A stretch of 64,000 nucleotides of DNA from an uncultured Pseudomonadales bacterium (GCA_964457085.1 CAYWDM010000001.1:45082-109081), one strand, 5' to 3'; counted from the stretch's first letter, positions 18,462 to 53,147 are shown. Translations and numbers: made by a program. Notes: generated from the sequence alone by a model not told the origin.

Positions 18462-18462
18462 C

Positions 18463-32018: not shown

Positions 32019-32117
32019 GAGAGTAGTATGGAGGATGTGGAGTGGGGAAGCAATTAAGAAACATGGTTCTTAAAACCTCTGCAACAAACAGTAGTAGCAA
32101 AATAGCAATCACTCAGT

Positions 32118-32372
32118 CGCAACAGTTTAGTTTTTGCTACAATGAGTGAGCCATGACCCAAGATACAGATATTGCCATCAAGATAGATCACGTTAGCAAG
32201 CTTTTTCATAAGCAGAAACAACGTACCTTTAAAGAGCTTGTCCCTGCATTACTTGGTGGTGAAAAAGCAGTCGACAGTTTTTGGGGACTATAAGATGTCA
32301 ATCTTTAGATAAAGAGGCGAGATAGTCGAAATAATTGGTCTAACCAAAGTGGTAAAAGTACTTGTTAAATTC
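32118..32372 (+). repeat. degenerate duplicate of the wzt promoter and 5' coding region (homologous to about 38221..38468)
   Basis: A 16-nt identical block (agtttttgctacaatg), then ATGACCCAAGATACAGA... The first roughly 135 nt of coding sequence are in frame at roughly 90% identity by eye; the rest has indels and substitutions and ends near the Walker-A ggtaaaagtac. Confidence 0.7.
32154..32293 (+). pseudogene. wzt: truncated, frameshifted remnant of the Wzt/TagH ABC-ATPase N-terminus
   Basis: Translates MTQDTDIAIKIDHVSKLFHKQKQRTFKELVPALLGGEKAVDSFWGL, then a frameshift and stop. Compare the intact MTQDTDLAIKINHVSKLFHKQKQRTFKELIPALLGGEKAIDSFWAL at 38245. Confidence 0.65.
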
Positions 32373-32392
32373 AATTATGTACTTGAACTATA

Positions 32393-33151
32393 ATGCAAAA
32401 TAATTCTTTAATTAATGACGCTAGCTATCTACATTGGGACAGTGTTTTTTTCGGTTATTCAATAGCAAAGGTTCAGAATAACGAGATAAATGATCAAGAA
32501 CTCAGTATTTTTATAAACGACCTATTTAAAAAGAATTACAAACTTGTTTATTTCTTTGATGAATCCATGTCTAGGGTAAGCACACAAGACCTATCAGACT
32601 TAAATGGAAAGTTGGTTGATACCAAAGTAATATATTCAAAATTACTGGTTAATGGTAATCGTTTTATTAATTCTTCTAACTACGAGTCCTATCTTCATCA
32701 CGCTTCAAACCAGCGACTTCTCAGTTTAGCACTTCAGAGTGGCAAACATTCAAGATATTACACCGACGCTAACTTTAAAAAAAATGAATATATCAAACTT
32801 TATTCAACTTGGTTGCATAAATCACTTGAGGGATCAATTGCTGATGAAATATACATTCACAAGTGTGGTACAAAAGAGGTGGGATTAATAACACTAAAAC
32901 TTAATAAGAAGATAGCAGAAATTGGGTTGCTTTCTGTTGATGTTAATTATCGAAGGAAGCATATCGCTTCAAATTTAATGAGTGGAGTTATCAACTTTGC
33001 AAGTAGCCGCAATTGCCGTTCGATTGAAGTTGCCACACAACAATCAAATTTGGAAGCATGTGGTTTTTATGAAAAACAAGGATTTTCAAAAATAAAGGTA
33101 ATAAATATTTATCATTTTTGGAACCAAAATAATGAAAAAAATTCCATTTAA
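32393..33151 (+). CDS. wecD: GNAT acetyltransferase, WecD-like (dTDP-fucosamine acetyltransferase)
   Basis: HWDSVFFGYSIAKV parallels the WecD N-terminal W-x-x-x-FFG-x-x-S-A-x-V block, and IEVATQQSNLEACGFYEKQGF parallels [26 protein letters not shown]/R-x-x-G-x-G/A-like region (RRKHIASNLM). Immediately upstream of and overlapping wecE, as in the ECA cluster. Confidence 0.6.
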   Translation: MQNNSLINDASYLHWDSVFFGYSIAKVQNNEINDQELSIFINDLFKKNYKLVYFFDESMSRVSTQDLSDLNGKLVDTKVIYSKLLVNGNRFINSSNYESYLHHASNQRLLSLALQSGKHSRYYTDANFKKNEYIKLYSTWLHKSLEGSIADEIYIHKCGTKEVGLITLKLNKKIAEIGLLSVDVNYRRKHIASNLMSGVINFASSRNCRSIEVATQQSNLEACGFYEKQGFSKIKVINIYHFWNQNNEKNSI

Positions 33152-34283
33152 TTCACCACATCTAGCAGGAAAAGAATTCGAATATGTTTCTAATGCATAT
33201 AGAAGTGGACATCTTGCTGGTGGAGGTGAATATACCAAGTTAGCTCAAAGTTTTCTCGAGAAGAAGCTTAAATGTAAAAAAGTATTGCTTACGCATTCCT
33301 GCACTGCAGCACTTGAAATGTCAGCAATCTTAGCAAATGTTATGCCAGGCGATGAGGTCATTATGCCTTCTTTCACATTTGTTTCCACGGCCAACGCCTT
33401 TGTGTTAAGGGGAGCAATTCCTGTTTTTATTGACATCAAAAAAGATACGCTCAATATGGATGAAAAATTAATTGAAGCAGCAATAACCTCCAAAACAAAA
33501 GCTATTGCTCCTGTTCATTATGCGGGTGTCGGATGTGAAATGGACTCAATTATGGCCATAGCTAAATCAAATAATTTAATGGTTATTGAGGATGCTGCTC
33601 AGGCATACTTATCCAAATATAATAATGAAAACTTAGGTACTATTGGAAATTTAGCGGCTCTTAGTTTTCATGAAACAAAAAATGTGATCTCCGGAGAAGG
33701 AGGAGCACTCCTGATAAACGATGAATCAATATTTGAACGTGCAGAAATTATTTGGGAAAAAGGCACTAATAGATCAAAATTTTTTAGAGGTCAAGTAGAT
33801 AAATATACATGGGTAGACGTTGGATCATCATTTTTGCCAAGTGAAATTATGGCTGCCTTCTTACTTGCTCAATTGGAGAAGGGTGAATTAATTACTCGAA
33901 AGAGATTAAAACTTTGGAATAGGTATGATGAGAAACTAAAAAAATTGCAAGCTTTGGGTCTAATAAAGCTTCCAAGAATTCCAGCAAATACGTCTCAAAA
34001 TGCTCATATTTACTACATTATTTTAAAAAACCTTGAAGTGAGACAAAAACTCATTAGTTACTTAAATAGTCTGGGAATCATGTCTGTGTTTCATTATATT
34101 CCACTTCACTCGTCTCCAGCTGGATTAAGATTTGGCAAAATTGGTTCAAAAATGGATGAAACTGATTCAATTTCAAATACACTTTTGCGACTACCACTGT
34201 TTTTTGATTTAAAGCTTCACGATCAAGATAGAGTTGTAGATGCGGTATATAAGTATTTTGGAGTAACAAATCTCAACACCTAA
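33132..34283 (+). CDS. wecE: DegT/DnrJ/EryC1 PLP aminotransferase, WecE-like (dTDP-4-amino-4,6-dideoxygalactose transaminase)
   Basis: KVLLTHSCTAALEM, GDEVIMPSFTFVSTANAFVLRGA, IEDAAQAY, SFHETKNVISGEGGALLINDE and ERAEIIWEKGTNRSKFFRGQVDKYTWVDVGSS match the E. coli WecE blocks nearly residue for residue. Confidence 0.85.
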   Translation: MKKIPFNSPHLAGKEFEYVSNAYRSGHLAGGGEYTKLAQSFLEKKLKCKKVLLTHSCTAALEMSAILANVMPGDEVIMPSFTFVSTANAFVLRGAIPVFIDIKKDTLNMDEKLIEAAITSKTKAIAPVHYAGVGCEMDSIMAIAKSNNLMVIEDAAQAYLSKYNNENLGTIGNLAALSFHETKNVISGEGGALLINDESIFERAEIIWEKGTNRSKFFRGQVDKYTWVDVGSSFLPSEIMAAFLLAQLEKGELITRKRLKLWNRYDEKLKKLQALGLIKLPRIPANTSQNAHIYYIILKNLEVRQKLISYLNSLGIMSVFHYIPLHSSPAGLRFGKIGSKMDETDSISNTLLRLPLFFDLKLHDQDRVVDAVYKYFGVTNLNT

Positions 34284-34284
34284 T

Positions 34285-35214
34285 TTAAAATCCTAGCTTT
34301 TTTTCAACAATATATAGAGGTCGACGCTTAGACTCTAAATAGTTTCTGCCAAGATATTCTCCCATAATACCAAGAATTACCATCTGGATTCCGTTAAAAA
34401 AAATGATTAAAACAATTAAGGAAGCCCATCCAAGTATAGGAATTCCAAAAAAAAGTTTTCGATAAATGACAACGAATGCTAGAATTGCCGACAACATAAC
34501 CGTTAAAAAACCCAATCTACTTGCTAACTTCAAAGGATAATCCGTAAAAGATGAAATCGCATTCAGTGCTAATATGAATTGTTTAGAAAAGCTATATTTT
34601 GATTGGCCACTATATCTTTTCCCATGTGTAACTGGTTGACCTATATGTCTAAAGCCTACCCATCCAATTAATCCAACAAGATATCTGTTGTTTTCCCTAA
34701 ACTCTCTTAAGCTGTCTACCACCTGTTTCGTCATTATTCTAAAAATTGTAGAATTAATTACGATTTTTTCAGTCATCATGCTTTTTATAATTACATTAAA
34801 TATCTCAGAAGTAAATTTCTTAAAAAAGCCAAATTGTTTATTAATTCTGACCCCGTAAACAACGTCATACCCATCCTTAAGTTTATTAAATAGCAGAATA
34901 ATATCTTCAGGTCTGTCCTGTAAATCACCATCCATCATAACCACATAGTCGCCACTGGCATGATCTAATCCAGCTGTAATTGCTACGTGATGACCAAAAT
35001 TTCTAGAAAATTTAACTATTTTGACTCTCTTATCATTTTTATTTAAATCCTGAAGATATTTGAAGGTTTGATCTGAACTACCATCATCTACCATAATCAT
35101 TTCCCAGTCTAAATCCGGAAAATCTTTTATCATTGCATTTTTAACCCTCTTATATAAAACCTGAATAATTGAGTCATCATTAAAATTAGGAATTACAATA
35201 GAAATCATTTTCAT
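34285..35214 (-). CDS. GT2 polyprenyl-phosphate glycosyltransferase (GtrB/ArnC/DPM1-like) with C-terminal TM helices
   Basis: ISIVIPNFNDD...MIMVDDGSSDQT...VVMMDGDLQDRPEDI GT2 blocks, plus two C-terminal TM helices (LTVMLSAILAFVVIY and LIVLIIFFNGIQMVILGIMGEYLGR), typical of the GtrB/ArnC family. Confidence 0.85.
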   Translation of the reverse strand: MKMISIVIPNFNDDSIIQVLYKRVKNAMIKDFPDLDWEMIMVDDGSSDQTFKYLQDLNKNDKRVKIVKFSRNFGHHVAITAGLDHASGDYVVMMDGDLQDRPEDIILLFNKLKDGYDVVYGVRINKQFGFFKKFTSEIFNVIIKSMMTEKIVINSTIFRIMTKQVVDSLREFRENNRYLVGLIGWVGFRHIGQPVTHGKRYSGQSKYSFSKQFILALNAISSFTDYPLKLASRLGFLTVMLSAILAFVVIYRKLFFGIPILGWASLIVLIIFFNGIQMVILGIMGEYLGRNYLESKRRPLYIVEKKLGF

Positions 35215-35279
35215 AAGCTTTTTTTTGTGATTTATTGGGTACCTCGATTGTTAATATATATCCAATGAGATTAGTTTAT

Positions 35280-36968
35280 TCACTTTATTTCAAGTATGTT
35301 TTTTTTTGGAATGTTAACCGAGATATCGTAATTCCATATATACAAAAATTTGTTTTTTTCAAATTCGATGGCTTCATTTTCCAATCCAAATTGATCGCGC
35401 ATTTCAACAATATCACAGCTGGACGTATTACTTTGCTTACTTTTATCAACGTAAACAAATGTTTTTTGGATGTTAGCGTCTGGTTCATACCATTTTTTGT
35501 ATGAAAACCAATAGTAAGGAATCACTTTTCCCCAATCGCACAAAATGGAACGAATAACAATAGTATTTCTAGAATAATAGGTATTGTTAGAAGAATCCCA
35601 ATATCCAGCAAACCCTTTCTTTAATGACTTTTTGTTTAATAAGTCAATCAAAGTAATATTTGCGTCTAACCTATTATATTCATTAAAGCGCTTTAGTTCA
35701 TCTTTTAGAGTATTTAAAAATGAATGTGTATTTATCAACAAATGGACAATCATTAATAAATACAATATCACTTTAAGTCTATTATAAGATGTTAATGCCA
35801 CTGCAAGGAATTGATAAATAACCAGATACATTGTCACTACAAGTAAAATGTGGTATCTGATTGTTTCACCTCCAGCTACGGGTCTGGCACTAAAAACATA
35901 AATTACACAACTAAAAATCGGCAATGAACACAGAAAAAAATGAAATGGGTTGTTATTTCTAATCGATTTATACAAAATAAATATAATTCCAAAAAGAAAC
36001 AAAGTAATAACAAGAATATTTAATGCCGAGCTAAAACTAATCATTGACAGCATTTGTCTTCCAAAAAAATTCCTAAAAGGAATTAATGCATTAATATCAT
36101 TAAAAAATATTCCTATATTTGAGCCTAATTTATCCAAAGTTACAAACATGCTGGACTCGTCATACATGACAGCAATGTATTTAGAAAAAAACATTCTCAA
36201 TAAACTCGATAAAAATATGCACATTAATGAGTAGACAGATATCCTAAGTATGCTAAATTTTGCTCGATTACTTAATAAAAAAAAGATAAAGTTTACCAAT
36301 GCTAGAGGGATCAAAATCATGTAAGTGATAAATGGGTCACCAAAGGCTTGTAGCAATAATAATGTTAAACATATTAGCGTTTTAGTTCCGATTCTAATTT
36401 TTTCGCCTTTAGGATAAATAATTTCTTCGTATAAACTATAAATTGCTAATAATATTAGAGGAATATCCTTTCTGAACATTGCAGCATCAATTAGATAAAT
36501 AAGAGGGCCTAGTAAGGTTGAGATGATAATCAGCAATAACAAGTAGTTAGATATCTGACTTTTTTTAAATGTAAAGATCTTCTTAACGAGAACCCCAAGT
36601 GCGAAAACATTCACAAAAGTTTGAAAAAAGATGACTAGAAAAAACGTTTTGTAGCTTATTCCAAATATTAAATAAATTGGAATCATATAAAACATCACTT
36701 GAAATAGCAAAGGTGTAGGAGGCATTAAGTAAACACCAAAATTGCCTCGCATTAACTCATCAAATAAGAGATAATAAGCAGCCCAATCACTTTGAAAGAT
36801 TGCTCCACTGGAAATATAAAATGAGTAGAGTAAACCAATGCAAATTAAGCCTAAATAAAAAAGTGAAATATTAGAAACTCTTTTAGAAGCTACATGAATG
36901 AAATAAATTAAGCTAGATACCAACCTCTGCATATCAGGTATAATACTGATTAAATTTCGAAACATCAA
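35280..36968 (-). CDS. large polytopic membrane protein (candidate GT-C partner of the adjacent GtrB-like GT2)
   Basis: 562 aa with more than 10 TM helices and a C-terminal soluble domain. Sits immediately upstream of the GT2 and is co-oriented with it. No catalytic motif recognised. Confidence 0.4.
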   Translation of the reverse strand: MMFRNLISIIPDMQRLVSSLIYFIHVASKRVSNISLFYLGLICIGLLYSFYISSGAIFQSDWAAYYLLFDELMRGNFGVYLMPPTPLLFQVMFYMIPIYLIFGISYKTFFLVIFFQTFVNVFALGVLVKKIFTFKKSQISNYLLLLIIISTLLGPLIYLIDAAMFRKDIPLILLAIYSLYEEIIYPKGEKIRIGTKTLICLTLLLLQAFGDPFITYMILIPLALVNFIFFLLSNRAKFSILRISVYSLMCIFLSSLLRMFFSKYIAVMYDESSMFVTLDKLGSNIGIFFNDINALIPFRNFFGRQMLSMISFSSALNILVITLFLFGIIFILYKSIRNNNPFHFFLCSLPIFSCVIYVFSARPVAGGETIRYHILLVVTMYLVIYQFLAVALTSYNRLKVILYLLMIVHLLINTHSFLNTLKDELKRFNEYNRLDANITLIDLLNKKSLKKGFAGYWDSSNNTYYSRNTIVIRSILCDWGKVIPYYWFSYKKWYEPDANIQKTFVYVDKSKQSNTSSCDIVEMRDQFGLENEAIEFEKNKFLYIWNYDISVNIPKKNILEIK

Positions 36969-37031
36969 GATGTGCTGTTACAGCAAAATAACTTGAATTA
37001 ATTCAAAAAAGACCAAAAGTAAAAATACTAT

Positions 37032-37904
37032 ATGCTAACCTCACATATCTGCCAAGAACGAGACTTTGAAGAAGAGTGGTTTGCCAAAAGTTCTAAGGTA
37101 ATGTATAGCTCATTTCAAAGATACATGAGAGATTTCAAGAAAGCAAATAAACTTAAAATCAAATTACCGATCCTTTATCACAGAAAAATGTGGGAGTTTT
37201 GTTATATTTATCAGGCTTTACTTGAAAACAAAAAATTAGGACCTGATAACATTGGTTTGGGTTTTGGAGTCGGCAAAGAGCCTCTCGCATCTATATTTGC
37301 CTCCCTTGGCTGTGGAATAGTTGCAACTGATCTTGAGCCAGTTTTAGCTAATAAGTTGGGTTGGTCAAAGTCTAATCAGCACTCATCTTCACTCGTTGAT
37401 TTAAACATGTATAAGATATGTCCAAAGGAAAGTTTTAATCGTTTGGTTTCGTTTGAAAATGTCAATATGAACCTAATCCCTAAAAAGTTTAGTCGCAAAT
37501 TTGACTTTACATGGTCGTCATGCTCTTTAGAGCATTGTGGGAACTTGGAGCTAGCAGAAGATTTTATTGTTAATCAGCTTGATTGCTTAAAAGATGACGG
37601 TATAGCAGTTCATACGACGGAATTCAATCTGTCATCTAACACGGACACATTAACTGAAGGGGAAACAATTATTTTTAGAAAAATAGACATTGATCGAATT
37701 GTGAACAAATTACAAAAAATGGGTGCTCAAATTACAATTGATTATTCAGTCACTCAAAATGATAGGTTTTCACATTCAAATACTGATTTTCCACCATATA
37801 CCCATAATCCTCACCTCAAACTTGAGCTAGGAAATTGGATATCTACATCAATAGGCTTAATTATCAAAAAAAAGAAAAACTTTTTTCAAATTTTCCACTG
37901 GTAA
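37032..37904 (+). CDS. putative class I SAM-dependent methyltransferase-like protein
   Basis: Gly-rich motif-I-like GLGFGVGKEPLASIFASLGCGIVATDLE and a later acidic block FDFTWSSCSLEHCGNLE. Function uncertain. Confidence 0.35.
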   Translation: MLTSHICQERDFEEEWFAKSSKVMYSSFQRYMRDFKKANKLKIKLPILYHRKMWEFCYIYQALLENKKLGPDNIGLGFGVGKEPLASIFASLGCGIVATDLEPVLANKLGWSKSNQHSSSLVDLNMYKICPKESFNRLVSFENVNMNLIPKKFSRKFDFTWSSCSLEHCGNLELAEDFIVNQLDCLKDDGIAVHTTEFNLSSNTDTLTEGETIIFRKIDIDRIVNKLQKMGAQITIDYSVTQNDRFSHSNTDFPPYTHNPHLKLELGNWISTSIGLIIKKKKNFFQIFHW

Positions 37905-38022
37905 AGTTTAATCATAGATAATTACCCAAACTTACATTAAGTATATTATTTCATTACAGGGACTAAATTGAATTCGAACTCACTATCCTCAAAGGAAAAA
38001 TTCTGCTTCGTATCATTTTTAT

Positions 38023-38096
38023 ATTCTTAAGTGTCTCTTTTGCAACTAACAATTAGAGATTTGTTTATTAAACCTCTTAGAATACACTTAAAGAAT
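38023..38096. repeat. imperfect 12-nt inverted repeat (ATTCTTAAGTGT ... ACACTTAAAGAAT) in the AT-rich leader upstream of wzt
   Basis: Arms at 38023-38034 and 38084-38096, separated by about 49 nt. Confidence 0.3.
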
Positions 38097-38226
38097 ACAA
38101 ATTGCCTGCACAGCAGATTTAAGTCGAGAAGACAATCAATCAGATTGACACTATAGTGTTTTTTTCAATAAACTTTTACAACCATACCAACGAAACTAAT
38201 CTTCACAGTAGAATTTGCAGAGTTTT

Positions 38227-38235
38227 TGCTACAAT
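38227..38235 (+). promoter_or_regulatory. extended -10 promoter element TGcTACAAT for wzt, conserved in both wzt copies
   Basis: TGnTACAAT sits 9-10 nt upstream of ATG 38245, implying a very short or leaderless 5' UTR. The identical element precedes the remnant copy at about 32124-32132. Confidence 0.3.
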
Positions 38236-38244
38236 GGATACGTC

Positions 38245-38952
38245 ATGACCCAAGATACAGACTTAGCTATCAAAATAAATCACGTTAGCAAACTTTTTCA
38301 TAAACAGAAACAGCGTACTTTTAAAGAACTCATCCCTGCATTACTTGGTGGTGAAAAAGCAATTGATAGTTTTTGGGCACTACAAGATATAAATCTGGAG
38401 ATTAAAAAAGGCGAGACAGTAGGAATTATTGGACCCAATGGTAGTGGTAAAAGTACACTACTAAAGTTAATTGCTGGAGTAAGCAACCCCACAAAAGGCA
38501 CAATTACCGTCAATGGTCGAATTGCCCCGCTGATTGAACTCGGAGCAGGATTTCACCCAGAACTTACTGGTCGTGAGAATGTGTTTATGAATGGAGTTAT
38601 TCTAGGAATGTCTAGGAAGGAAATTGAATTAAAATTCAACCAAATAGTCGATTTTGCTGAACTATGGGAGTTTATTGATCAGCCAGTCAAACACTATAGC
38701 AGCGGCATGTACTTGAGGCTGGCATTTGCGGTGGCGATTCATACTGAACCGGAAATACTACTGGTGGATGAGATTTTAGCGGTAGGAGATGCTGCTTTTC
38801 AGGAGAAATGTTTTAACGTAGTCAAAAGATTTCAAAAAATGAAAATTACAATCATCATTGTCTCACACAACATAAGTCAAATTAACAATTTCTGTTCTAC
38901 AATAGTGAGACTAAATTTAGGAAAAACTATCAATGTCGAGAACAGAAATTGA
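38245..38952 (+). CDS. wzt: ABC transporter ATP-binding protein Wzt/TagH-like (nucleotide-binding domain only)
   Basis: Walker A GPNGSGKSTLL, Q-loop, ABC signature YSSGMYLRLAFA, Walker B ILLVDEILAVGD and H-loop VSHN. Only 235 aa, so there is no C-terminal carbohydrate-binding domain. Confidence 0.85.
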   Translation: MTQDTDLAIKINHVSKLFHKQKQRTFKELIPALLGGEKAIDSFWALQDINLEIKKGETVGIIGPNGSGKSTLLKLIAGVSNPTKGTITVNGRIAPLIELGAGFHPELTGRENVFMNGVILGMSRKEIELKFNQIVDFAELWEFIDQPVKHYSSGMYLRLAFAVAIHTEPEILLVDEILAVGDAAFQEKCFNVVKRFQKMKITIIIVSHNISQINNFCSTIVRLNLGKTINVENRN

Positions 38953-42731: not shown

Positions 42732-44085
42732 AAAAATTTGGTTTGACATTTCATATCTCTCAAATTGGTCTGGCAACCCAGTAGGTATAATTAGAGTTCA
42801 AATGGAGCTAGCTCATAGATTGCTTCAAACAGATGGCGTGTCATTTTGCAAATATAATTCAAAAAACTGTTCCTTTGAAAAAATACCCAAATCTGAAGTG
42901 ATGTCCATTTTACTGAGAATCAAAAGTGGATCCAATAAAACTAAGGTAATTCCTAAACACTCAAAGCTAGGATTTTTAAAAAAAGATTTATTTAATTTGA
43001 TTAAATCAAAGAGCACGAATCGAAGTTTTCATATTGCTATTGATTTATTGTCAGAAAGAATTAGCGATTTCTTTTTTAAGTATTTAATAATGCCATTCAA
43101 GTTGATGAGGTTAAATGGATTGATTTGCAGCTTTAAAAAATTAAATTTTATAAAAAGACAACCAGATTCTATTTTTGATCAGAACTCGATATACATCAAT
43201 ATAGGTTTACATTGGGAAGAGCCTATTTTTTATGAAATTTTACAACAAAAAATATTAAAGAATTTGAGTGTGATCACAATGTGCTTCGATTTAATTCCAG
43301 TTTTGAAACCTGAATATTTTCTCAATAAGTTGACTAAAATATTTCGGTACTATTTTTTTCTTCAAAATAAAGTGTCTGACAAAATCGTGTGCATTTCAGA
43401 ATTTACAAAAGTTGAATTTGAGAAATGGACAAGAAATAATTTCAATCATACAGCCTCAACAATGGTAATCCATTTATCAACACCCAAAAAAAATACTTCA
43501 AAAAATATTTTGGTACCCAATCGATTCGGTATATATACCCCGTTATCATTTATTTTATATGTTTCTACAATTGAATCAAGAAAAAATCATCAGATATTGT
43601 TTGATGCGTACAAACTTGCATACAAAAAAGACAAGCTGAATGAAATGCCACACTTAATTTTGGTTGGCAGATTAGGTTGGGGTGTTGAAAAAACAATTTC
43701 TGATTTTTACTCAAATTCTGAGCTGCAACAGAAAATATCCATATTTCACGATGTTTCAGATGCGGAGTTACATAATCTTTATTTGAATTGTTGCTTCACT
43801 GTTTACCCATCAAAATATGAGGGCTGGGGCTTGCCTATTTCTGAGTCCCTTGTATGGGGGAAATTTTGTATTGCTTCGGACAATTCATCCTTGAGAGAGG
43901 CAAGTCAAAATCTTGCTGAGCATATTTCTGAGACTGACGTCGAACTATGGTATAGAGTAATCTTAAAATATTACCAAAACGAATCTCTATTAAAGATAAA
44001 AGAAGAAAATATTAAATTGGAGTACAGATCAAGATCCTGGGAAAACTTTTATAATGACTTTATGAGTTACGTCTTGAAAGAGTAG
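42718..44085 (+). CDS. GT4 (Glycos_transf_1) glycosyltransferase with an N-terminal extension of about 250 aa
   Basis: VYPSKYEGWGLPISESLVWGKFCIASDNSSLREA block. Confidence 0.7.
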   Translation: MSMNRKIWFDISYLSNWSGNPVGIIRVQMELAHRLLQTDGVSFCKYNSKNCSFEKIPKSEVMSILLRIKSGSNKTKVIPKHSKLGFLKKDLFNLIKSKSTNRSFHIAIDLLSERISDFFFKYLIMPFKLMRLNGLICSFKKLNFIKRQPDSIFDQNSIYINIGLHWEEPIFYEILQQKILKNLSVITMCFDLIPVLKPEYFLNKLTKIFRYYFFLQNKVSDKIVCISEFTKVEFEKWTRNNFNHTASTMVIHLSTPKKNTSKNILVPNRFGIYTPLSFILYVSTIESRKNHQILFDAYKLAYKKDKLNEMPHLILVGRLGWGVEKTISDFYSNSELQQKISIFHDVSDAELHNLYLNCCFTVYPSKYEGWGLPISESLVWGKFCIASDNSSLREASQNLAEHISETDVELWYRVILKYYQNESLLKIKEENIKLEYRSRSWENFYNDFMSYVLKE

Positions 44086-44128
44086 GTATTTGTCTTACCA
44101 TATTGATACAATTAGTTGTAATTAATTC

Positions 44129-45052
44129 ATGAAAAAACTGTTTATAACAATTCCAGCATTCAATGAGGAAAAGTCAATTGCGGCTGTTATAAAATCCATT
44201 CCAAAAAAGATCCCTGGTATTAGTTCTATCAAAATTTTAGTTTGGAGTGATGGATCATTGGACAATACTGCCACAGTTGCGAGTGAAGCTGGTGCAGATT
44301 ATGTTTTTAATAGTCCAAGGAATTTTGGTTTGGCATACACATTTGATCAGGCAAGCAAAAAAGCAATTGAACTTGGTGCAGATATAGTTGTGAATACTGA
44401 CGCTGACAACCAATATGACCAAAAAGAGATTTTAAATCTAGTCAAACCAATTCTCGACAATAAAGCAGACATAGTAAGTGGAGATAGACAGATCGCTACC
44501 CTTTCACATATGCCAAACTCAAAAAAATATGGCAATATGATTGGCAGCTGGGTTATTAGAAATTTATCTGAATCCAACATTCAAGATGCATCTTCTGGAT
44601 TCAGAGCCTATAACAAAAAAGCAATTCAATTATTTAGGATATTTTCAAGACACACATACACACATGAAACATTAATCCAAGCTGTATATGGTGGTTTGTC
44701 AGTGATTGAGGTGCCTGTGACATTTAAGAAAAGATCCTCAGCATCAGGACAATCACGGCTAATTGGTGACGTAATAAGCCACATTCTCAAGTCTGGACTC
44801 ACCATAGTTAGAACTATCCTAATGTTCAGAGCACTAAGGTTAATGCTGATCCTTGGTTCAATAGAATTATTTTTTGCATTGATACTTAGCTTGCGCTATC
44901 TATACCTACTTTTGGTATTAAATGTTGGAGTAGGCCACACACAATCTCTAATCTTAGCTTCTATGCTGTTTACCATGTCACTAATCTCCTATTTACTTGG
45001 TATTATTGCTGACTTAATTGCGGTTAACCGCAAAATCATGATAGGTTGGTAA
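44129..45052 (+). CDS. GT2 polyprenyl-phosphate glycosyltransferase (GtrB/ArnC/DPM1-like) with C-terminal TM helices
   Basis: LFITIPAFNEEKSI...VWSDGSLDNT...VVNTDADNQYD GT2 blocks and two C-terminal TM helices. Confidence 0.8.
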   Translation: MKKLFITIPAFNEEKSIAAVIKSIPKKIPGISSIKILVWSDGSLDNTATVASEAGADYVFNSPRNFGLAYTFDQASKKAIELGADIVVNTDADNQYDQKEILNLVKPILDNKADIVSGDRQIATLSHMPNSKKYGNMIGSWVIRNLSESNIQDASSGFRAYNKKAIQLFRIFSRHTYTHETLIQAVYGGLSVIEVPVTFKKRSSASGQSRLIGDVISHILKSGLTIVRTILMFRALRLMLILGSIELFFALILSLRYLYLLLVLNVGVGHTQSLILASMLFTMSLISYLLGIIADLIAVNRKIMIGW

Positions 45053-45060
45053 CTATTTAT

Positions 45061-45954
45061 ATGAATTTTAACTTTTCATTTGATTTCTGGACATTATGGG
45101 GGCTCTGTGCTCAAACTTTGTTTTTTGGCAGGTTTGTACTGCAGTGGCATCAATCAGAAAAAGCTAAGAAGGTTGTGATGCCTACATATTTTTGGCATTT
45201 AAGCTTGCTTGGTGCTGCCATGTTCGGTGTGTATGCGTTAGTTCGACAGGACATAGTTTTTATCATTACAGCCATCTTGCAATTAGTTCTCTATGGTAGA
45301 AATCTAGTAATAGCTATTAACCAGCCAAAAGAACCATCTCCATTTGTTAGCGGAAACTTAGAAGATAAATATCACACTAAGAATCCAGTTTCAAAATTAT
45401 TAATGAATCATTTTCTACGTGAATTTACTCACATACTAGATGAAGCTAAATCAAGGCACTCAATTAAAACGATATGCGAAGTTGGTTGCGGAGAAGGTGA
45501 ATTGCTTAAAATTCTTCATCAAAAATTCCCAGATGCTAAATTGTCTGCCTGTGATATTGCGAATTCCGAAACAAAAAAAGCTAAAACAAACACAAAAGAT
45601 TTTAATGTTCATTTTACAAACCAAAATGCCGAAAAATTATCTCAATATACTAATAAACAATTCGACTTAGTTATTTGCTGTGAGGTGCTAGAACACTTAG
45701 AAAATCCTCAGAATGGAATCTCAGAGCTAAATAGAATTGCCAAATTTGGAGTAACTTCTGTTCCTCTTGAACCACTCTGGAGTTTACTCAACCTCTTTAG
45801 ACTAAAATATATTTCTTCTCTGGGAAATACTCCAGGGCATTTGAATAATTGGTCATCGCAATCATTTATGTCGAATATTCTTAATCAGAAATCAACTATT
45901 ATCCTCAAAAAACTGCCATTACCATGGCAAATGTATTTACTAAAATTTGAATAA
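45061..45954 (+). CDS. fusion protein: LAB_N (lipid-A-biosynthesis N-terminal type) 3-TM domain plus class I SAM methyltransferase
   Basis: N-terminus GLCAQTLFFGRFVLQWHQSEKAKKVVMPTYFWHLSLLGAAMFGVYALVRQDIVFIITAILQLVLYGRNL matches the LAB_N consensus (F-x-R-F-x-x-QW-x-x-SEK-x-K-x-x-x-P-x-x-FW ... Y-x-RNL). C-terminal ICEVGCGEGELLKIL ... DLVICCEVLEHLENP is the methyltransferase motif I/II. ATG at 45061 chosen; the ORF in the track opens at a TTG at 45046. Confidence 0.6.
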   Translation: MNFNFSFDFWTLWGLCAQTLFFGRFVLQWHQSEKAKKVVMPTYFWHLSLLGAAMFGVYALVRQDIVFIITAILQLVLYGRNLVIAINQPKEPSPFVSGNLEDKYHTKNPVSKLLMNHFLREFTHILDEAKSRHSIKTICEVGCGEGELLKILHQKFPDAKLSACDIANSETKKAKTNTKDFNVHFTNQNAEKLSQYTNKQFDLVICCEVLEHLENPQNGISELNRIAKFGVTSVPLEPLWSLLNLFRLKYISSLGNTPGHLNNWSSQSFMSNILNQKSTIILKKLPLPWQMYLLKFE

Positions 45955-45959
45955 AACAT

Positions 45960-46523
45960 ATGTCACAAGAGTCTGAGGGTATTTTTTCACCATTTCTAAG
46001 AAAACAGCGTTATGTACAAGCCAAGAAATATGTACCAAAACGTGCAAAACTGCTTGATATAGGCTGTGGGTCTGGAGGTTTTAGTCACTATGTACCAAAG
46101 TCTGTTAGTTATTTTGGAATAGATGCGCAGCTTCGATGGCCAAAAAAAATTAAGAACTTCGGTGTGGCAAAAATAGGCAAAAAGTATCCAATGTTTGTCC
46201 AAGAGGATTCCTTCGATTGTATCGTTAGCTTGGCGGTTATCGAGCACTTATCAGACCCACTAATACTAATTACTGAGTCACAGAAATATCTCAAAAACAA
46301 TGGCGTGCTGATTCTCACGACTCCGCATCCTATAGGTAGATTTTGGCATGACTATGGCGCCAAAATAGGTTGGTTTAGTCATGAAGCTAGTGAAGAACAT
46401 GAACAATTTATAGATTTGAGGTTCATGAACAAAATGCTAAATGGTACAAAAATGAAATTGATCAATTATCGCAGATTCTTATTTGGATTTAATCAGATTT
46501 TTGTGCTGAAAAAAACTCTGTAA
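45960..46523 (+). CDS. class I SAM-dependent methyltransferase
   Basis: AKLLDIGCGSGGFSHYV motif I and DCIVSLAVIEHLSDP motif II-like. Confidence 0.7.
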   Translation: MSQESEGIFSPFLRKQRYVQAKKYVPKRAKLLDIGCGSGGFSHYVPKSVSYFGIDAQLRWPKKIKNFGVAKIGKKYPMFVQEDSFDCIVSLAVIEHLSDPLILITESQKYLKNNGVLILTTPHPIGRFWHDYGAKIGWFSHEASEEHEQFIDLRFMNKMLNGTKMKLINYRRFLFGFNQIFVLKKTL

Positions 46524-48542
46524 ACGATTAACCGTGTCGTCTATTGCTAATAAAATAACTAAAATTAAAAGTGACGCAATTGATTTAATCAAGTCTTCCA
46601 TGGAAAATCTAAAGTCACGGAAAATTGGCAGAAACATACTTAAATCTGAAAAAAGTGTGCCTGAATTTACAAAGAATAAGTTTTTGAATGATCCAACATA
46701 TAATGGTTGCATTACTGTCTCAAGAACTATAGAACCGTAAAGTTGATAAGCTGAGATTGTGGCAAGGAAAACAAATACATATTTATTCAATGTTTTTTCA
46801 AGATATGGTATTAGTAAAATAAACACAAAAGGCATTACTGCGATAAATTGTCTCAGAGGTTGGGAGCCTCCACCGAATGATCCGAGATATGCATGTGGAG
46901 CTAAATGAAGAAGAATCATCAATATCGAGATTGAAAAAATATCAATTTTTTTATTTATGAGACTTATGCTCCCTTTTATAATTTTTCTAAATGACTTGGC
47001 AGCAAAAATTGAATATGGCATCCACAAAAATATACCTACCCTCGAATCAATGAAGTTGCCAACAAAATTCCGTAAAAACGGAAATGGTGAGATACCTCTA
47101 TAATTAACTTGATTTGAATAAAAACTCTTCAGAGATATTGATCCAAAAAGTAAGTAATTTACTAAGAAAAAAGATAAAATTAACAATAAATATGGTGCAA
47201 CCAATAAATCAACACCAAATCTATTTTTTTTGAAATCTATATTTATCCAAAAGTAAACCGATGCCAAAAATATTGATGTCAGCAAATATTTAACACCGAG
47301 CAAAGGTAGTAGACCTAGAAATATAATTGAAATTATTTTGTAAATTGGCATATTCAAACGAAAAGAAACAAGTGAAAACATAAAGACAGTGGATGCAATT
47401 ATTTCTGGATAAATAGCTGTAATAAAGAATAGCTCAGGAGAAAGGATGGTGAAAATACCTATTAACAATAAGGGGGACTTAAATCCTGGAAAATATATTT
47501 TAACAACTTTAAAAAATAAATACGTTTGAATAATAAAAATGACACTCATTAATATATACCCAGACTGTTGTACAGTTAAATAGTTTGAAAAGATAAATCT
47601 AGATGGAATCAAAATAAAACTCATTAAATATCCATGAGCACTATATAATTTTCCATCTTTCGGTGAAAAATATGCATGCGTTTCTGCCCCATTTATATTT
47701 GGTATTTGATTGACAAGGTTTCCTTGATAGAGACTTGTCATATCTATTGTTCTATTTTCAACTTGGTTAAGCATATTTAGAAGATAATGTGGTTCATCTC
47801 CTATTGCATCAAATCGATGAGAATAAATTGCTAGCAACACTGTTAAAATAATAAGTGCTAAGAATTTCACTAGGTTATGAATTTTTGACCTATCTAAGAA
47901 TTTAAAAAATGAAAAAGTAAGTAAAACAACAAACACAGATAAAATAACCAACTTTACTGAAATAAAATCATCTAGAGCGAAGCCATTATTTGAAATTAAT
48001 TCTAACTCCATTCCTCGTACCGTAATTCCTTTTCTTAATCCCACAAGTGAAAACTCTACATTAGACTCATCATAATGATTGTTAAACTCAAACTTGTTTT
48101 CGACATTACCGCCCCAAATAAAAAAAATGTGTTCATATATTTTTTTTTTGGCTTTATTAGCCAAAACATTTACGCCCAGCAATGGTGTCCCATTGTTTTC
48201 TCTAGTATCTAACTCATAGTCCACAGTCAAGCGATATTTTCCCCTTGCCAATTTCATATATGGACCATGACTGATAAGACCAGGTGCAGTGCTTGTTATT
48301 TTTAGATTTTGCGAGTCATCTCTTGTAAAATCAACCAATTCTTGATTCGCCCATAATCCCAGTGGTCCCTCATAATAAAAGTTGGAAACTTTATCAGGCA
48401 TTATTTTTTTTTGAAAAAGAAACAAAAAAAATCCAACTAACGCGACAAAAGAAAACAAGAATGATATTCTAAATACATAAAACAAAAACTTTTGATTGGA
48501 TCTAAGTTTTAACATTCTTTGTACCTTTAATAATGAGATCAT
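46479..48542 (-). CDS. large polytopic membrane protein of unknown function (N-terminal TM, an extracytoplasmic domain of about 130 aa, then more than 10 TM helices)
   Basis: 687 aa. Contains A9 and A10 coding homopolymers (plus-strand T-runs at 48404-48412 and 48140-48149). ATGA-type overlap with the upstream FkbM gene. Confidence 0.5.
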   Translation of the reverse strand: MISLLKVQRMLKLRSNQKFLFYVFRISFLFSFVALVGFFLFLFQKKIMPDKVSNFYYEGPLGLWANQELVDFTRDDSQNLKITSTAPGLISHGPYMKLARGKYRLTVDYELDTRENNGTPLLGVNVLANKAKKKIYEHIFFIWGGNVENKFEFNNHYDESNVEFSLVGLRKGITVRGMELELISNNGFALDDFISVKLVILSVFVVLLTFSFFKFLDRSKIHNLVKFLALIILTVLLAIYSHRFDAIGDEPHYLLNMLNQVENRTIDMTSLYQGNLVNQIPNINGAETHAYFSPKDGKLYSAHGYLMSFILIPSRFIFSNYLTVQQSGYILMSVIFIIQTYLFFKVVKIYFPGFKSPLLLIGIFTILSPELFFITAIYPEIIASTVFMFSLVSFRLNMPIYKIISIIFLGLLPLLGVKYLLTSIFLASVYFWINIDFKKNRFGVDLLVAPYLLLILSFFLVNYLLFGSISLKSFYSNQVNYRGISPFPFLRNFVGNFIDSRVGIFLWMPYSIFAAKSFRKIIKGSISLINKKIDIFSISILMILLHLAPHAYLGSFGGGSQPLRQFIAVMPFVFILLIPYLEKTLNKYVFVFLATISAYQLYGSIVLETVMQPLYVGSFKNLFFVNSGTLFSDLSMFLPIFRDFRFSMEDLIKSIASLLILVILLAIDDTVNRLQSFFQHKNLIKSK

Positions 48543-49561
48543 TTGCTGCTTTTCTCTCCATTGTGTACAAAAATTAAATTTGCGAACGTGGTATATACCA
48601 ATTCATACGGCAACAACTTAAAAAAACTGAGCAGCTTATTCTTTTGACTCTCACTTCCAAATGTCAAATATTCAACTATTATGACCTTTGGGTTTATTTT
48701 TTTAAAGTTTAGTGATTCTAAAACATCAATTTCTGTCCCCTCTGTATCAATACTTAAAATATCAATGGACTCAATACCATTTTCAGTGATAATTTGCTCA
48801 AGTGATTTTACTGTTACAAATAGCTCGCTTTTTTTCTGCTTTCTTAAACGGTCAATTTTAGAGTCCACCAATCTAGACCAGTCAGGAGAAGAATCACTTA
48901 TCTCAAACTTACGCTGACCAGTCACACTAGAAACTGCTGTCTGAAAAACCTTATCTCTAAATTTACTTGCTAGTTTGTAGTTTTCGGGGTTTGGCTCGAA
49001 ACAAATTCCTTTCCAACCCTGTTTTTCAAAGTAATAAGTATTTGAATAAGTAATTCCATCTGCAGCACCCACATCAAGAAAAAAACCTTTTTTTGGTAAT
49101 TTAATATTATTTGAAATCCAGCTATCCTCACCAAATTGAGAGAAAAATATTTTACTTCCCTTACTATGTAGGTTTGATTTGCCATTCAATATGATTAATT
49201 TTTGAATCTCATAAACCGAGTTCATTCTTATTTGCAGATCAGTGAATGACCTTTGGTATTGTCCAAACACTTGTTCAATTTCTTTAAACTTTTGTTCTTG
49301 TAGCTTAATTAAATCTTGATGGTTCAATATGTCATTATTTAGAATGAGAAAGAGAGATTTTACATATTCATTAAAATGAATTTGAGCAGCTGAATATTTG
49401 AATAATTGCTTGTAAATAGCATCTCTCAAAAATCCAAAATTGCGATTTTTTGCTGATGATTTAAAAGTCACAAAATTTTCTTGAATTAGTTTAAGCAAAG
49501 ACCCTTTAGTGTCATACTTTTTTACTTCTGTACTATTGCTGATATTTTTTTTCATGCTCAT
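48539..49561 (-). CDS. FkbM-family methyltransferase
   Basis: GFFLDVGAADGITYSNTYYFEKQGWKGICFEPNPENYKLA is the Methyltransf_21/FkbM core; 340 aa with an N-terminal domain of about 140 aa. Confidence 0.75.
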   Translation of the reverse strand: MSMKKNISNSTEVKKYDTKGSLLKLIQENFVTFKSSAKNRNFGFLRDAIYKQLFKYSAAQIHFNEYVKSLFLILNNDILNHQDLIKLQEQKFKEIEQVFGQYQRSFTDLQIRMNSVYEIQKLIILNGKSNLHSKGSKIFFSQFGEDSWISNNIKLPKKGFFLDVGAADGITYSNTYYFEKQGWKGICFEPNPENYKLASKFRDKVFQTAVSSVTGQRKFEISDSSPDWSRLVDSKIDRLRKQKKSELFVTVKSLEQIITENGIESIDILSIDTEGTEIDVLESLNFKKINPKVIIVEYLTFGSESQKNKLLSFFKLLPYELVYTTFANLIFVHNGEKSSK

Positions 49562-49585
49562 ATTTAATTTTGTAACAAATAAATA

Positions 49586-50572: not shown

Positions 50573-50716
50573 TATAGCCTAGTGAGTGGAAAAAAATGAA
50601 GTGTGGCTAGACTACCTATGGGGTATGAGACAGTAGATAAATACTCCTTTGATCACAAACTTCAATGACAGCTCAATAATTCTGAGCTACAATGATCTAA
50701 TAATTACTCATCAAAA

Positions 50717-51121: not shown

Positions 51122-51124
51122 CGA

Positions 51125-51553: not shown

Positions 51554-51580
51554 ATGCTAGTGCTAATAAAATAAAAAAAC

Positions 51581-51620
51581 CTGCGAAGACTTTGCAGTGT
51601 CGCAGGCGAGTTTAGTACTT
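51581..51620 (-). terminator. rho-independent terminator for the minus-strand gene ending at 51707
   Basis: Read on the minus strand: GC-rich inverted repeat CCTGCGA / TCGCAGG with a 13-nt loop, followed by a T7 tract (plus-strand A-run 51581-51587). Confidence 0.55.
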
Positions 51621-53146: not shown

Positions 53147-53147
53147 C

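Follow-up and report, generated by a model that had tools for sequence, protein, structure and literature searches.

Gene content of the block

We analysed a 64,000-nucleotide (nt) stretch of DNA deposited under the name of an uncultured Pseudomonadales bacterium (GCA_964457085.1, CAYWDM010000001.1:45082-109081). This whole 64-kb stretch is called the window, and all coordinates are positions within it, counted from its first letter. The subject of this work is an AT-rich block of glycan genes at 32373-49575, the cassette, which begins where a decayed second copy of the 5' end of wzt fades out and which contains an intact wzt of its own. Judged by its genes, the block belongs to a Wzm/Wzt (ABC-transporter-dependent) locus for a cell-surface polysaccharide, of which it is the variable part; an ABC-2 permease and a nucleotide-binding subunit are present, with three GT4 glycosyltransferase open reading frames (ORFs) alongside. 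Gene content was read from Pfam and NCBIfam scans. The features of the block and its immediate flanks are as follows, with lengths in amino acids (aa), transmembrane segments as TM, GC for guanine-plus-cytosine content and GC3 for GC at third codon positions.

29806-30585, plus strand: wzm, ABC-2 permease, resident, left flank (PF01061, 69.8 bits, cutoff 26.9; GC3 0.465)
30612-32018, minus strand: 468-aa protein, resident, directly upstream of the wzt remnant (GC 0.455)
32135-32143, plus strand: TGCTACAAT, extended -10-like element of the remnant copy
32153-32378, plus strand: wzt 5' pseudogene remnant (ATG at 32153; in-frame codons 1-46 at 32153-32290; TAA at 32291-32293)
32393-33151, plus strand: WecD-like GNAT N-acetyltransferase, putative dTDP-4-amino-4,6-dideoxyhexose N-acetyltransferase (PF00583, 50.8 bits)
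33132-34283, plus strand: WecE, dTDP-4-amino-4,6-dideoxyhexose transaminase (NF008687 equivalog, 592 bits, cutoff 375)
34285-35214, minus strand: GT2 of the ArnC/GtrB/PgfS type, polyprenyl-phosphate sugar synthase-like, membrane-anchored (PF00535, 106.6 bits)
35280-36968, minus strand: 562-aa polytopic membrane protein (at least 11 TM helices and a C-terminal beta-rich domain)
37032-37904, plus strand: 290-aa protein (unk290), possible fourth methyltransferase (sub-threshold Methyltransf_23 and Methyltransf_11, E 0.03-0.07)
38227-38235, plus strand: TGCTACAAT element of the intact wzt copy
38245-38952, plus strand: intact wzt, 235 aa (PF00005, 88 bits)
38933-39379, plus strand: 148-aa coiled-coil protein (cc148; weak coiled-coil Pfam matches only)
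39376-41598, plus strand: 740-aa GT4 (GT4_740) with two GT4 stretches, candidate polymerising glycosyltransferase (PF00534, 85 bits)
41595-42731, plus strand: GT4 glycosyltransferase, 378 aa (PF13692, 57.5 bits)
42718-44085, plus strand: GT4 glycosyltransferase, 455 aa (PF00534, 67.7 bits)
44129-45052, plus strand: GT2 of the Dpm1/AglJ type with C-terminal membrane anchor, polyprenyl-phosphate hexose synthase-like (PF00535, 61.7 bits)
45046-45954, plus strand: LAB_N membrane domain fused to a class I S-adenosylmethionine (SAM) methyltransferase (PF07578, 84.7 bits; PF08241, 58.9 bits)
45960-46523, plus strand: SAM methyltransferase, 187 aa (PF13489, 59.5 bits)
46479-48542, minus strand: 687-aa polytopic membrane protein with a GDEPHY loop (at least 11 TM segments)
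48539-49561, minus strand: FkbM-family methyltransferase with N-terminal coiled-coil, last cassette gene (PF05050, 79.7 bits; TIGR01444, 65.5 bits, cutoff 37.7)
49586-50572, minus strand: LPG_synthase_TM/flippase-like membrane protein, resident, right flank (PF03706, 117.5 bits; TIGR00374, 49.8 bits, cutoff 43.2; GC 0.456)
50717-51121, plus strand: MazG-like protein, right flank (PF03819)

A preliminary description of this DNA, made by reading the sequence alone, had listed an intact wzt, wecD and wecE, two GT2s, three or four GT4s, four methyltransferases and two very large membrane proteins. That list is essentially right. We recovered wzt, WecE, the two GT2s, the GT4s (as three ORFs), three clear methyltransferases and both membrane proteins; the fourth methyltransferase is sub-threshold (E ~0.03), and WecD falls below its cutoff. 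The GNAT protein reaches 81.5 bits with NF008212 (cutoff 219) and 43 bits with TIGR02382 (cutoff 195), and by these scores it is a relative of WecD only, not equivalog-level WecD. WecE also matches E. coli-type structures in the PDB (6BLG, 458 bits; 4PIW, 453 bits). Homologs 36-40% identical to the GNAT lie directly upstream of WecE in two contigs, L114 and L115. In both, the gene order is GNAT, WecE, GT2 and a very large membrane protein (L114, 7291-12848, 875 aa; L115, 7253-12336, 708 aa); the GT2s and membrane proteins there have no homology to their counterparts in the window, which points to a functional layout that recurs with different parts.

The ArnC/GtrB-like GT2 aligns over its full length with the PgfS model (NF047588, 236 bits) and the ArnC model (NF007986, 189 bits), below cutoff, and the Dpm1/AglJ-like GT2 likewise scores below cutoff with TIGR04182 (97 bits) and NF041391 (87 bits). 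The 562-aa protein gave no match in the Pfam, NCBIfam and PHROGs scans, and its single-sequence AlphaFold2 model is unusable (predicted local distance difference test score, pLDDT, 44); from its context we infer that it is an extracytoplasmic glycosyltransferase partner of the adjacent GT2. The 290-aa protein has no PDB match, and its single-sequence model is unusable as well (pLDDT 33). The 687-aa protein belongs to a rare family, with 129 representatives at E<1e-3 among 1.84 billion proteins and with invariant residues G248, D249, E250, Y253, H303, P369 and R564. A Pfam match was found in 0/30 members of this family, and a profile search of the PDB gave a chance match only. When the 687-aa protein was compared by hhalign with the PMT_2-type paralogs of the window, the match was weak (probability 20%, E 0.001), with GDE aligned to WDE; the protein is possibly GT-C-like. 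A phmmer comparison among all membrane proteins of the window linked neither the 562-aa nor the 687-aa protein to any other.

The intact Wzt consists of the nucleotide-binding domain only, without the Wzt_C domain (PF14524) that some homologs of ~400 aa do have. It scores 189-198 bits with TagH models of NCBIfam and 177 bits with the Wzt/RfbE model, all below the equivalog cutoffs. The 148-aa protein and the N-terminus of the FkbM methyltransferase have a motif in common (39% identity over 44 aa, E=5e-6).

Boundaries, base composition and assembly

The block has a GC content of 0.319 (32373-49575), as compared to 0.407 in the left flank and 0.436 in the right flank. When we fitted two change points by maximum likelihood over 26-56 kb, the edges fell at 32289 and 49600. 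The fit raised the log-likelihood by 206, and the three segments had a GC content of 0.431, 0.319 and 0.435; the fitted edges differ by 85 nt and 25 nt from the positions 32373 and 49575 given in the preliminary description. The 15 cassette genes have GC3 values of 0.23-0.34 (mean 0.279), and the 37 flank genes have a mean of 0.371 (Mann-Whitney P=7e-8). Tetranucleotide profiles in 2-kb windows change allegiance precisely at the cassette, and the discontinuity is present in GC, codon usage and tetranucleotides alike. Within the cassette, the part from wecD to unk290 and the part from wzt to FkbM show no base or tetranucleotide difference. Base composition was considered as a discriminator of the two parts and was rejected, the parts not differing.

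Two Logan contigs from run SRR12261225 correspond to window positions 31984-48218 and 48191-53240, both at 100% identity. Since separate contigs reproduce the two junctions at 100% identity, both junctions were independently assembled. The contig breaks lie at 31984, which is 145 nt upstream of the wzt repeat, and at 48191-48218, inside the 687-aa gene; strain variation or coverage may have caused them. The observation itself is solid.

No integrase, transposase or recombinase was found by Pfam scans among the ORFs of the block or its neighbours, in agreement with what had been described before, and the PHROGs scan found no mobile or phage genes among the no-family proteins of the cassette. 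There are no tRNA or Rfam matches in the window. We found no att-type or island-flanking repeats; the sole significant direct repeat, the wzt 5' end, flanks only part of the block. The features of a classical integrase-mediated island (edge integrase, tRNA or tmRNA target, att repeats) are absent.

A second copy of the wzt 5' end

By BLASTN, 32129-32361 matches 38221-38456 with 82.6% identity over 236 nt (3 gaps, E=6e-54), and the intact wzt copy lies 6,092 nt downstream of the remnant copy. A repeat finder returned the ungapped core (32129-32313 against 38221-38405, 85% identity) as the only outstanding direct repeat. Both copies have the same 14-nt block, TTTTTGCTACAATG, with TGCTACAAT inside it. 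In the remnant, the reading frame is kept over codons 1-46 (138 nt), with 87.7% nt identity to the intact copy; after the TAA at codon 47 there are a second stop and three indels, Walker A is destroyed, and homology to wzt fades near 32378, at about codon 75 and ~15 nt before the wecD ATG. We thus see the same duplicated 5' end of roughly 70 codons, the same in-frame start (described earlier as 135 nt) and the same identical promoter block that the preliminary description had picked out.

The two parts of the remnant have decayed to different degrees, with remnant-derived changes at 3/138 sites in codons 1-46 and at 20/87 sites in codons 47-75 (Fisher P=7e-7). It is possible that the remnant is a chimera of a fresh resident 5' end and an older donor remnant, which would imply serial displacement; it is also possible that selection has kept a promoter and leader that now precede wecD-wecE, or that mutations clustered at an illegitimate joint. 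The 46-codon ORF of the remnant and its promoter may be under selection. A similar wzt 5'-end remnant was not found near wzt in ~110 other fetched loci, in which a few second partial Wzt-like matches outside the candidate phyla radiation (CPR) were left unexamined.

The motif TGCTA(C/G)A(A/G)T ends 9 nt before the wzt ATG in both window copies and in two related contigs, L111 and L112 (~9980-9990 in each); sequence further upstream of the motif is not conserved with L111 and L112. This pattern suggests a near-leaderless wzt promoter in the sub-clade where wzt is apart from wzm. A generic promoter scan returned 29 promoter-like sites where 34.5 were expected, not above chance, and did not flag the element. 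No terminator is predicted between the remnant element and wecD, and the resident promoter of the remnant may now drive wecD-wecE. We also considered the GTTTTTGC block upstream of both wzt copies as a vestige of a wzm 3' end, given that wzm ends in GTTTTTGCCGATATTG in L109 and L110; only 8 nt match, and we rejected this candidate as too weak.

The same slot in related genomes

To compare this locus across related genomes, we used contigs and loci that hold homologs of wzm and wzt. L111, a 277-kb Logan contig, is syntenic with the window on both sides of the block (wzm 84%, 468-aa protein 58%, wzt 76%, LPG synthase 67% and MazG 80% identical). Between its wzt and its LPG-synthase gene lie two GT4s, an 826-aa protein, a methyltransferase, an epimerase and another GT4, and the first 5 kb of this cassette have a GC content of 0.25-0.30 as compared to 0.44-0.49 in the flanks. 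Homology between the window and L111 stops exactly at the stop codon of the LPG-synthase gene, which is the right edge of the block. L112, a 151-kb contig, was compared on its left flank only, the fetched stretch ending before the right flank. Its left flank matches that of the window (GT4 67%, membrane proteins 49% and 60%, epimerase 81%, wzm 85%, 468-aa protein 57%, wzt 75%); after wzt there is yet another gene set, and GC falls from 0.41-0.51 to 0.32-0.36. No homolog of any window-cassette gene was found in L111 or L112.

Ten further CPR loci have wzm-wzt in common with the window and differ downstream, with at most weak paralog-level GT4 matches, and they lose 8-15 GC points after wzt. The synteny of the left flank (GT2, GT4, two membrane proteins, epimerase, wzm, wzt) is seen in L005, L007, L009, L014 and L112, and wzm and wzt are adjacent in L004, L006, L007, L109 and L110. 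The slot is a replacement-type variable glycan island, with orthologous flanks, non-homologous content and lower GC. The cross-genome comparison supports the reading of a switchable cassette that the preliminary description had put forward: different cassettes sit between wzm and the flippase-like gene (seen with both flanks in L111 and with the left flank in L112), and no relative has the wzt remnant. Low GC does not hold up as the mark of an exotic donor; because the relatives' cassettes show the same drop after wzt, low GC is a property of cassettes across the lineage.

We found that the transition from conserved to variable sequence lies within wzt. Between relatives, Wzt is 74-93% identical over residues 1-189 and 16-68% from residue 190 onwards; against its closest homologs, the window Wzt is 85-96% identical over residues 1-185 and 16-36% over residues 191-235. 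Between L111 and L112, the identity of Wzt drops from 93% to 29% at residue 189. BLASTN homology of the intact wzt to 8/8 relatives stops at 38801-38816, a 16-nt interval at codons ~186-191, and the gene can be divided into a conserved part from 38245 to ~38811 and a cassette-specific tail at ~38812-38952. In the wzt of L111 and L112 (10001-10735), GC3 falls from ~0.55-0.60 to ~0.25 within the gene. By these alignments, the usual conserved-to-variable boundary in the clade is inside wzt, at about codons 150-190; the conserved 5' two-thirds of wzt are the usual left homology arm, and the last ~45 codons move with the cassette.

The relatives differ from the window at other points of the locus as well. 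Stretches without counterpart in the window lie at 594-1034 and 5147-8508 in L111 and at 5957-6406 and 8389-9904 in L112. L111 and L112 have in common a small ORF after wzm (59%) and a pair of GT2 and NTP-transferase genes upstream of wzt (69-71%); because these genes are absent from the window, the stretch from the 468-aa gene to wzt is also variable in the clade. In the CPR MAG L113 (GCA_964521215.1, CAZFRD010000001.1), genes of toxin-antitoxin or abortive-infection type (BrnT, DUF6922 and, twice, AbiEii) separate wzm from wzt and also directly follow wzt, within 2591-6554. Insertions seem to be tolerated at the wzm/wzt junction.

Affinity of the genome and the cassette

Among species-representative genomes, the closest loci to the intact Wzt are all from MAGs (metagenome-assembled genomes) of Patescibacteria/CPR, with 60-72% identity, and those loci have a wzm with 70-77% identity to the resident one (70-85% across its CPR relatives). 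The named closest groups in Wzt/wzm loci and protein matches are Paceibacterota, Shapirobacteria, Doudnabacteria, Nomurabacteria and the Patescibacteria group. Among 5.8 billion proteins, Wzt has its best non-self match at 79% identity, and the matches with names are Patescibacteria; the best non-self matches of GT4_740 in the same set are 33-37% identical and every named one is CPR. On this evidence the genome is a Patescibacteria (CPR) MAG, and the cassette has CPR affinity as well, because the nearest relatives of its Wzt and GT4_740 are CPR. L004-L006, L009, L013 and L014 carry 'Pseudomonadales' in their public titles despite Patescibacteria-like loci (e.g. isolate HK-STAS-PATE-17); organism labels for Patescibacteria-like MAGs titled in this way are unreliable.

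The organism has no near neighbour in the collections that we searched. RuvB, ArgRS and RmlB form singleton clusters at 90% identity among ~15 billion proteins, a metagenome scan with wzm found nothing nearer than 73%, and no genome in the collections searched was nearer than ~85% in wzm. Searches with Wzt and GT4_740 among the 5.8 billion proteins found no near-identical cassette.

WecE behaves differently from Wzt and GT4_740 in its affinity. Its best non-self matches among the 5.8 billion proteins, at 60-66% identity, belong to cyanobacteria, Alpha- and Gammaproteobacteria and Bacteroidota. The closest WecE homologs with context, in L114 and L115 (64-65%), lie beside the GNAT gene in glycosyltransferase-rich clusters flanked by PMT_2 genes, and one of these two contigs also encodes a 59% identical homolog of the epimerase of the resident flank. 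The preliminary description had argued that similarity to enterobacterial WecE supports foreign origin. The WecE is genuine; however, because WecE is very conserved, at 60-66% across many phyla with no closer enterobacterial match, its similarity to E. coli WecE carries no signal of origin.

Which copy of wzt is resident

We compared the two wzt copies with each other and with those of relatives. Over codons 1-189, GC3 is 0.32 in the intact copy as compared to 0.49-0.51 in L110-L113, and the resident wzm has a value of 0.47. Over codons 1-46, GC3 is 0.35 in the remnant and 0.24 in the intact copy. When the differences in codons 1-46 were polarised with four outgroups, 9 were derived in the intact copy (mostly GC to AT), 3 were derived in the remnant and 5 were ambiguous. 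Taken together, these values indicate that the remnant would be the resident allele and the intact copy the incoming one.

Of the differences in codons 1-46, 11 are synonymous and 6 nonsynonymous, as compared to 20% synonymous under neutrality (P=8e-5); because of this bias to synonymous change, the two copies would have diverged as functional alleles in separate genomes. Over the same codons the copies are 87.7% identical in nt to each other and only 71-75% identical to L111, L110 and L109, and for that reason the donor is taken to be a relative. A single cassette downstream of wzt in L113 holds homologs of unk290 (37%), the 562-aa protein (42%), the FkbM methyltransferase (53%) and GT4_740 (37%). 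Because these homologs come from both sides of the intact wzt, the 17 kb behave as one functional unit.

How the block may have arrived

We propose that the resident cassette was probably replaced by the block of a related CPR donor that included its own wzt, with truncation of the resident wzt. A related CPR donor would have supplied a contiguous ~17.2 kb, from wecD to FkbM, with its own promoter and wzt. The right end would probably have joined by homology at or beyond the LPG-synthase gene, and the left end would have joined illegitimately inside the resident wzt at about codon 75 (~32378), as in homology-facilitated illegitimate recombination, a pattern that has been described (PMC3240628). 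The resident cassette would have been deleted, and the resident promoter and wzt 5' end would have been left as a pseudogene directly upstream of wecD-wecE. Recombination at wzt had been named as the likely mechanism in the preliminary description; wzt is indeed the usual left arm in the clade, but plain homologous recombination does not account for this case, since a duplicate was left. Because plain double homologous recombination leaves no duplicate, the event needed an illegitimate or unequal joint. The precise path of recombination is one that we infer.

Several observations weigh against this proposal or parts of it. In the collections searched we found no genome with the same cassette and none closer than ~85% in wzm, and neither the donor nor the state before the event nor variation among strains of the species could thus be seen. 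Only the first 5.9 kb lie between the two copies of the repeat, a geometry that is also expected of a Campbell-type insertion. Over codons 1-46 the two copies differ only modestly in GC3 (0.35 and 0.24), and a near-pristine 5' part next to a heavily decayed 3' part of the remnant is not predicted by a single recent truncation. The promoter function of the element comes from conservation only, with the generic scan at chance level, and the roles of the 562-aa, 687-aa and 290-aa proteins come from context only. An initiating phosphoglycosyltransferase (WecA/WbaP) was not found by Pfam among ~50 window ORFs, mostly of at least 130 aa; it may lie elsewhere in the genome.

Some of these points are met by other courses of events. 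A circularised piece of ~5.9 kb from a related genome could have been inserted by a single crossover in the resident wzt 5' end; it would have carried wecD, wecE, the GT2, the 562-aa protein, unk290, the promoter and the first ~75 wzt codons, and the part from wzt to FkbM would be the older resident. The crossover would have made the direct repeats at 32129-32365 and 38221-38456, which flank exactly this 5.9-kb segment; L114 and L115, where GNAT-WecE again precede a GT2 and a large membrane protein, suggest that such a side-chain module is portable, and low GC does not date the wzt-to-FkbM part as new, given that the relatives' resident cassettes are AT-rich too. We nevertheless consider a pure insertion unlikely: codons 61-150 of the intact wzt, which lie beyond the crossover, have a GC3 of 0.27-0.37 where flank-like values of 0.49-0.51 (as in L110-L113) would be expected, the single L113 cassette has homologs from both sides of the intact wzt, and the two parts are alike in base and tetranucleotide composition. 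A tentative refinement of the proposed replacement, which differs from it in the left joint, deserves somewhat more weight. Here the donor would already have had a decayed remnant upstream of wecD and the left crossover would have been homologous, with the present remnant made of fresh resident codons 1-46 and old donor codons 47-75. Such serial displacement accounts for the heterogeneity of the remnant and for the synonymous excess in its 5' part, and it fits the habitual use of wzt as the left arm in the clade; displacement that leaves orphans is documented for effector-immunity modules of type VI secretion systems (T6SS) and for Rhs loci (PMC5361080). Against it, the ~110 other loci show no like remnant near wzt, leaving aside the few non-CPR partial matches mentioned above, and the uneven decay could also stem from selection that preserves promoter and leader, or from mutations clustered where an illegitimate joint formed.

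An origin without horizontal transfer, in which the wzt 5' end was duplicated in situ, one copy decayed and the low GC is intrinsic, agrees with the lineage-wide low GC after wzt and with the two copies being each other's closest relatives. It is improbable in light of the allele comparison: a neutral pseudogene should change more than the intact gene, while over codons 1-46 the remnant has 3 derived changes and the intact copy 9, the synonymous bias fits two functional alleles, and the repeat search showed no further duplication within the cassette. Import from a distant AT-rich or enterobacterial lineage has in its favour that WecE passes an enterobacterial-type equivalog model and scores ~455 bits with E. 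coli-type structures; the many phyla at 60-66% with no nearer enterobacterial match, the CPR affinity of Wzt and GT4_740 and the 88% nt identity of the incoming wzt and promoter block to the resident remnant make it very improbable. That the block is a chimera of assembly or binning, joining DNA of two organisms, is the least probable of all and can nearly be dismissed. The source is a MAG and the Logan contigs do break at 31984 and 48191-48218, but both GC transitions are well within independent contigs (381 nt and ~1.4 kb from contig ends), the stops and indels of the remnant show a true pseudogene and not a collapsed repeat, and in L111 an AT-rich cassette likewise abuts the LPG-synthase gene.

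Flanking genes and the wider window

The window as a whole is a glycan-biosynthesis neighbourhood with interspersed housekeeping genes, including those for ArgRS and RuvB. The Wzm/RfbD and KpsM models of NCBIfam match the resident Wzm over its full length, below their equivalog cutoffs. An exact 259-aa Wzm is found on an 808-bp NCBI contig of GCA_041443065.1, and the gene call on the 315-kb contig is 241 aa; the 808-bp contig ends just beyond both ends of wzm and might reflect strain-level branching or a duplicate assembly fragment. The 468-aa protein gave no Pfam, NCBIfam or PHROG match, and its orthologs in L111 and L112 (57-58%) lie downstream of wzm with one or a few small ORFs between.

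Parts of a second glycan route lie at 330-12261 and comprise RmlB, an RmlD-like gene, an LCP-family transferase, a flippase and several GT2/GT4 genes. Four PMT_2-type paralogs (pairwise E 1e-21 to 1e-51) surround the arginyl-tRNA synthetase gene within 13146-23703. The features named here are located as follows.

1204-2220, minus strand: RmlB, dTDP-glucose 4,6-dehydratase (TIGR01181 equivalog, 461.7 bits, cutoff 365.1; gene GC 0.408, in the native-GC flank)
2476-3624: LCP-family glycopolymer transferase
5381-6835: MOP/Wzx-like flippase
13146-14738: PMT_2-type paralog
16707-18461: PMT_2-type paralog
20438-22126: PMT_2-type paralog
22123-23703: PMT_2-type paralog

Predicted working of the glycan locus

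The gene set is consistent with the following route. The host RmlB would make dTDP-4-keto-6-deoxyglucose, the substrate of WecE; both enzymes score above their equivalog cutoffs. WecE would aminate this sugar at C4, and the GNAT protein would probably acetylate the product to dTDP-4-acetamido-4,6-dideoxyhexose. The GT4s would build a polymer on a lipid carrier, the 740-aa two-domain GT4 being like WbdA-type polymerases in layout, and three or four methyltransferases would modify or cap the polymer. The resident Wzm and the incoming Wzt would export the chain. Without a carbohydrate-binding domain on this Wzt, export presumably does not depend on a terminal cap (compare PMC9445017). The two pairs of a GT2 and a large membrane protein may, by context, add side-chain sugars outside the membrane; their layout is that of systems in which a lipid-linked sugar donor is made first and its sugar is then transferred on the outer side.

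No match to WecF, WzxE, WzyE or WzzE, which are specific to the enterobacterial common antigen (ECA), was found among the window proteins scanned; the locus is not an ECA locus. Of the dTDP-Fuc4NAc branch of ECA synthesis (RmlA, RmlB, WecE, WecD), RmlB and WecE are present at equivalog level, and in place of WecD there is the related GNAT. CPR cells are generally described as lacking an outer membrane, and for this reason the product is more likely a wall- or lipid-linked glycopolymer than a lipopolysaccharide (LPS) O-antigen.

Discussion

The closest described analogue, as judged by layout, is the common polysaccharide antigen (CPA) locus of P. syringae with its 'TET operon' (wzt-wbdD-wbdA). 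There, wzm and the genes upstream are conserved and wzt, wbdD and wbdA are swapped horizontally, and the variable part sets LPS type and tailocin sensitivity (PMC7820976). Both loci are variable from wzt on, both hold wzt, a two-domain GT4 polymerase and a methyltransferase, and both variable parts would set the glycan type; in the CPA locus, too, no integrase is consistently adjacent, and there is a history of horizontal transfer or recombination. In contrast to the CPA locus, the switch here lies inside wzt (at about codon 190), Wzt has no C-terminal carbohydrate-binding domain, and the locus has in addition the scar of a wzt 5' pseudogene and further genes ahead of wzt (wecD to unk290). The host here is a CPR bacterium with a presumed single membrane, and the product would not be an LPS O-antigen.

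Low-GC O-antigen and capsule clusters that are swapped between conserved flanks, and replacement-type flexible genomic islands ('glycotypes'), are well known. The window cassette is like such islands in its conserved flanks, non-homologous gene sets, low GC, lack of an integrase and apparent recombination in the flanks, with the qualification that our comparison is only among relatives ~75-85% identical in core-like genes.

Other known systems resemble parts of the locus. Displacement of T6SS effector modules that leaves orphaned fragments has been proposed (PMC5361080), and T6SS, Rhs and contact-dependent inhibition (CDI) systems are similar in that a module anchors on a conserved stretch, displaces the variable part and leaves gene fragments. 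In those systems the conserved anchor lies upstream, with 3' fragments or immunity genes accumulating on the downstream side; here the leftover is a 5' fragment on the upstream side, the anchor would be on the right, there is a single scar and no array, and for CPR the process is a predicted one. The arrangement of an aminotransferase and an N-acyltransferase beside an ArnC/GtrB-like GT2 and a large membrane protein is like that of ArnB-ArnC-ArnT, Gtr and three-component systems (PMC11127046), and the second, Dpm1/AglJ-like GT2 near another large membrane protein follows the same layout. Unlike Arn and Gtr, the window cassette has no GT-C family match (hhalign as given above, 20%) and no flippase component was identified, and unlike Arn its predicted sugar is a dTDP-linked 4-amino-4,6-dideoxyhexose and not UDP-Ara4N. 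The multi-domain GT4, the coiled-coil methyltransferases and Wzm/Wzt recall WbdA, WbdD and Wzt of E. coli O9a (PMC3482155, PMC9445017); the N-terminal motif that FkbM and the 148-aa protein have in common, together with their coiled coils, is reminiscent of WbdD (PMC3482155). Here, unlike in O9a, there is no Wzt carbohydrate-binding domain and no kinase domain.

The kind of locus described here is known, and current views are not overturned; a variable slot of this sort would be expected by specialists in glycan-locus evolution. What sets this case apart is the phylum, the breakpoint in the ATPase gene, the short Wzt, and the 5' scar with its possible reuse as a promoter. The uncharacterised families, especially the 687-aa 'GDEPHY' protein, are candidate extracytoplasmic glycosyltransferases. 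The wzt scar is a rare sequence-level record of one swap.

A more speculative and, in our view, doubtful extension is that in this clade the 5' end of wzt is a fixed site where successive cassettes dock, displace one another and are expressed from the near-leaderless promoter; unequal events would now and then leave chimeric 5' remnants, retained for the reuse of their promoter. Each incoming cassette would then bring a matching wzt 3' tail or a whole wzt. If this were true, the docking site would be the glycan counterpart of the Rhs, CDI and T6SS toxin displacement arrays, and it would allow integrase-free, rapid surface change in ultra-small episymbionts, altering host attachment or phage receptors.

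CPR/Patescibacteria are mostly uncultured, many are thought to be attached to hosts, and surface glycans probably matter for host recognition and phage susceptibility. The comparison of this slot across relatives shows that CPR bacteria diversify a Wzm/Wzt-exported glycan in the way that O-antigens and capsules are diversified elsewhere, with a fixed slot that is refilled with unrelated AT-rich gene sets.

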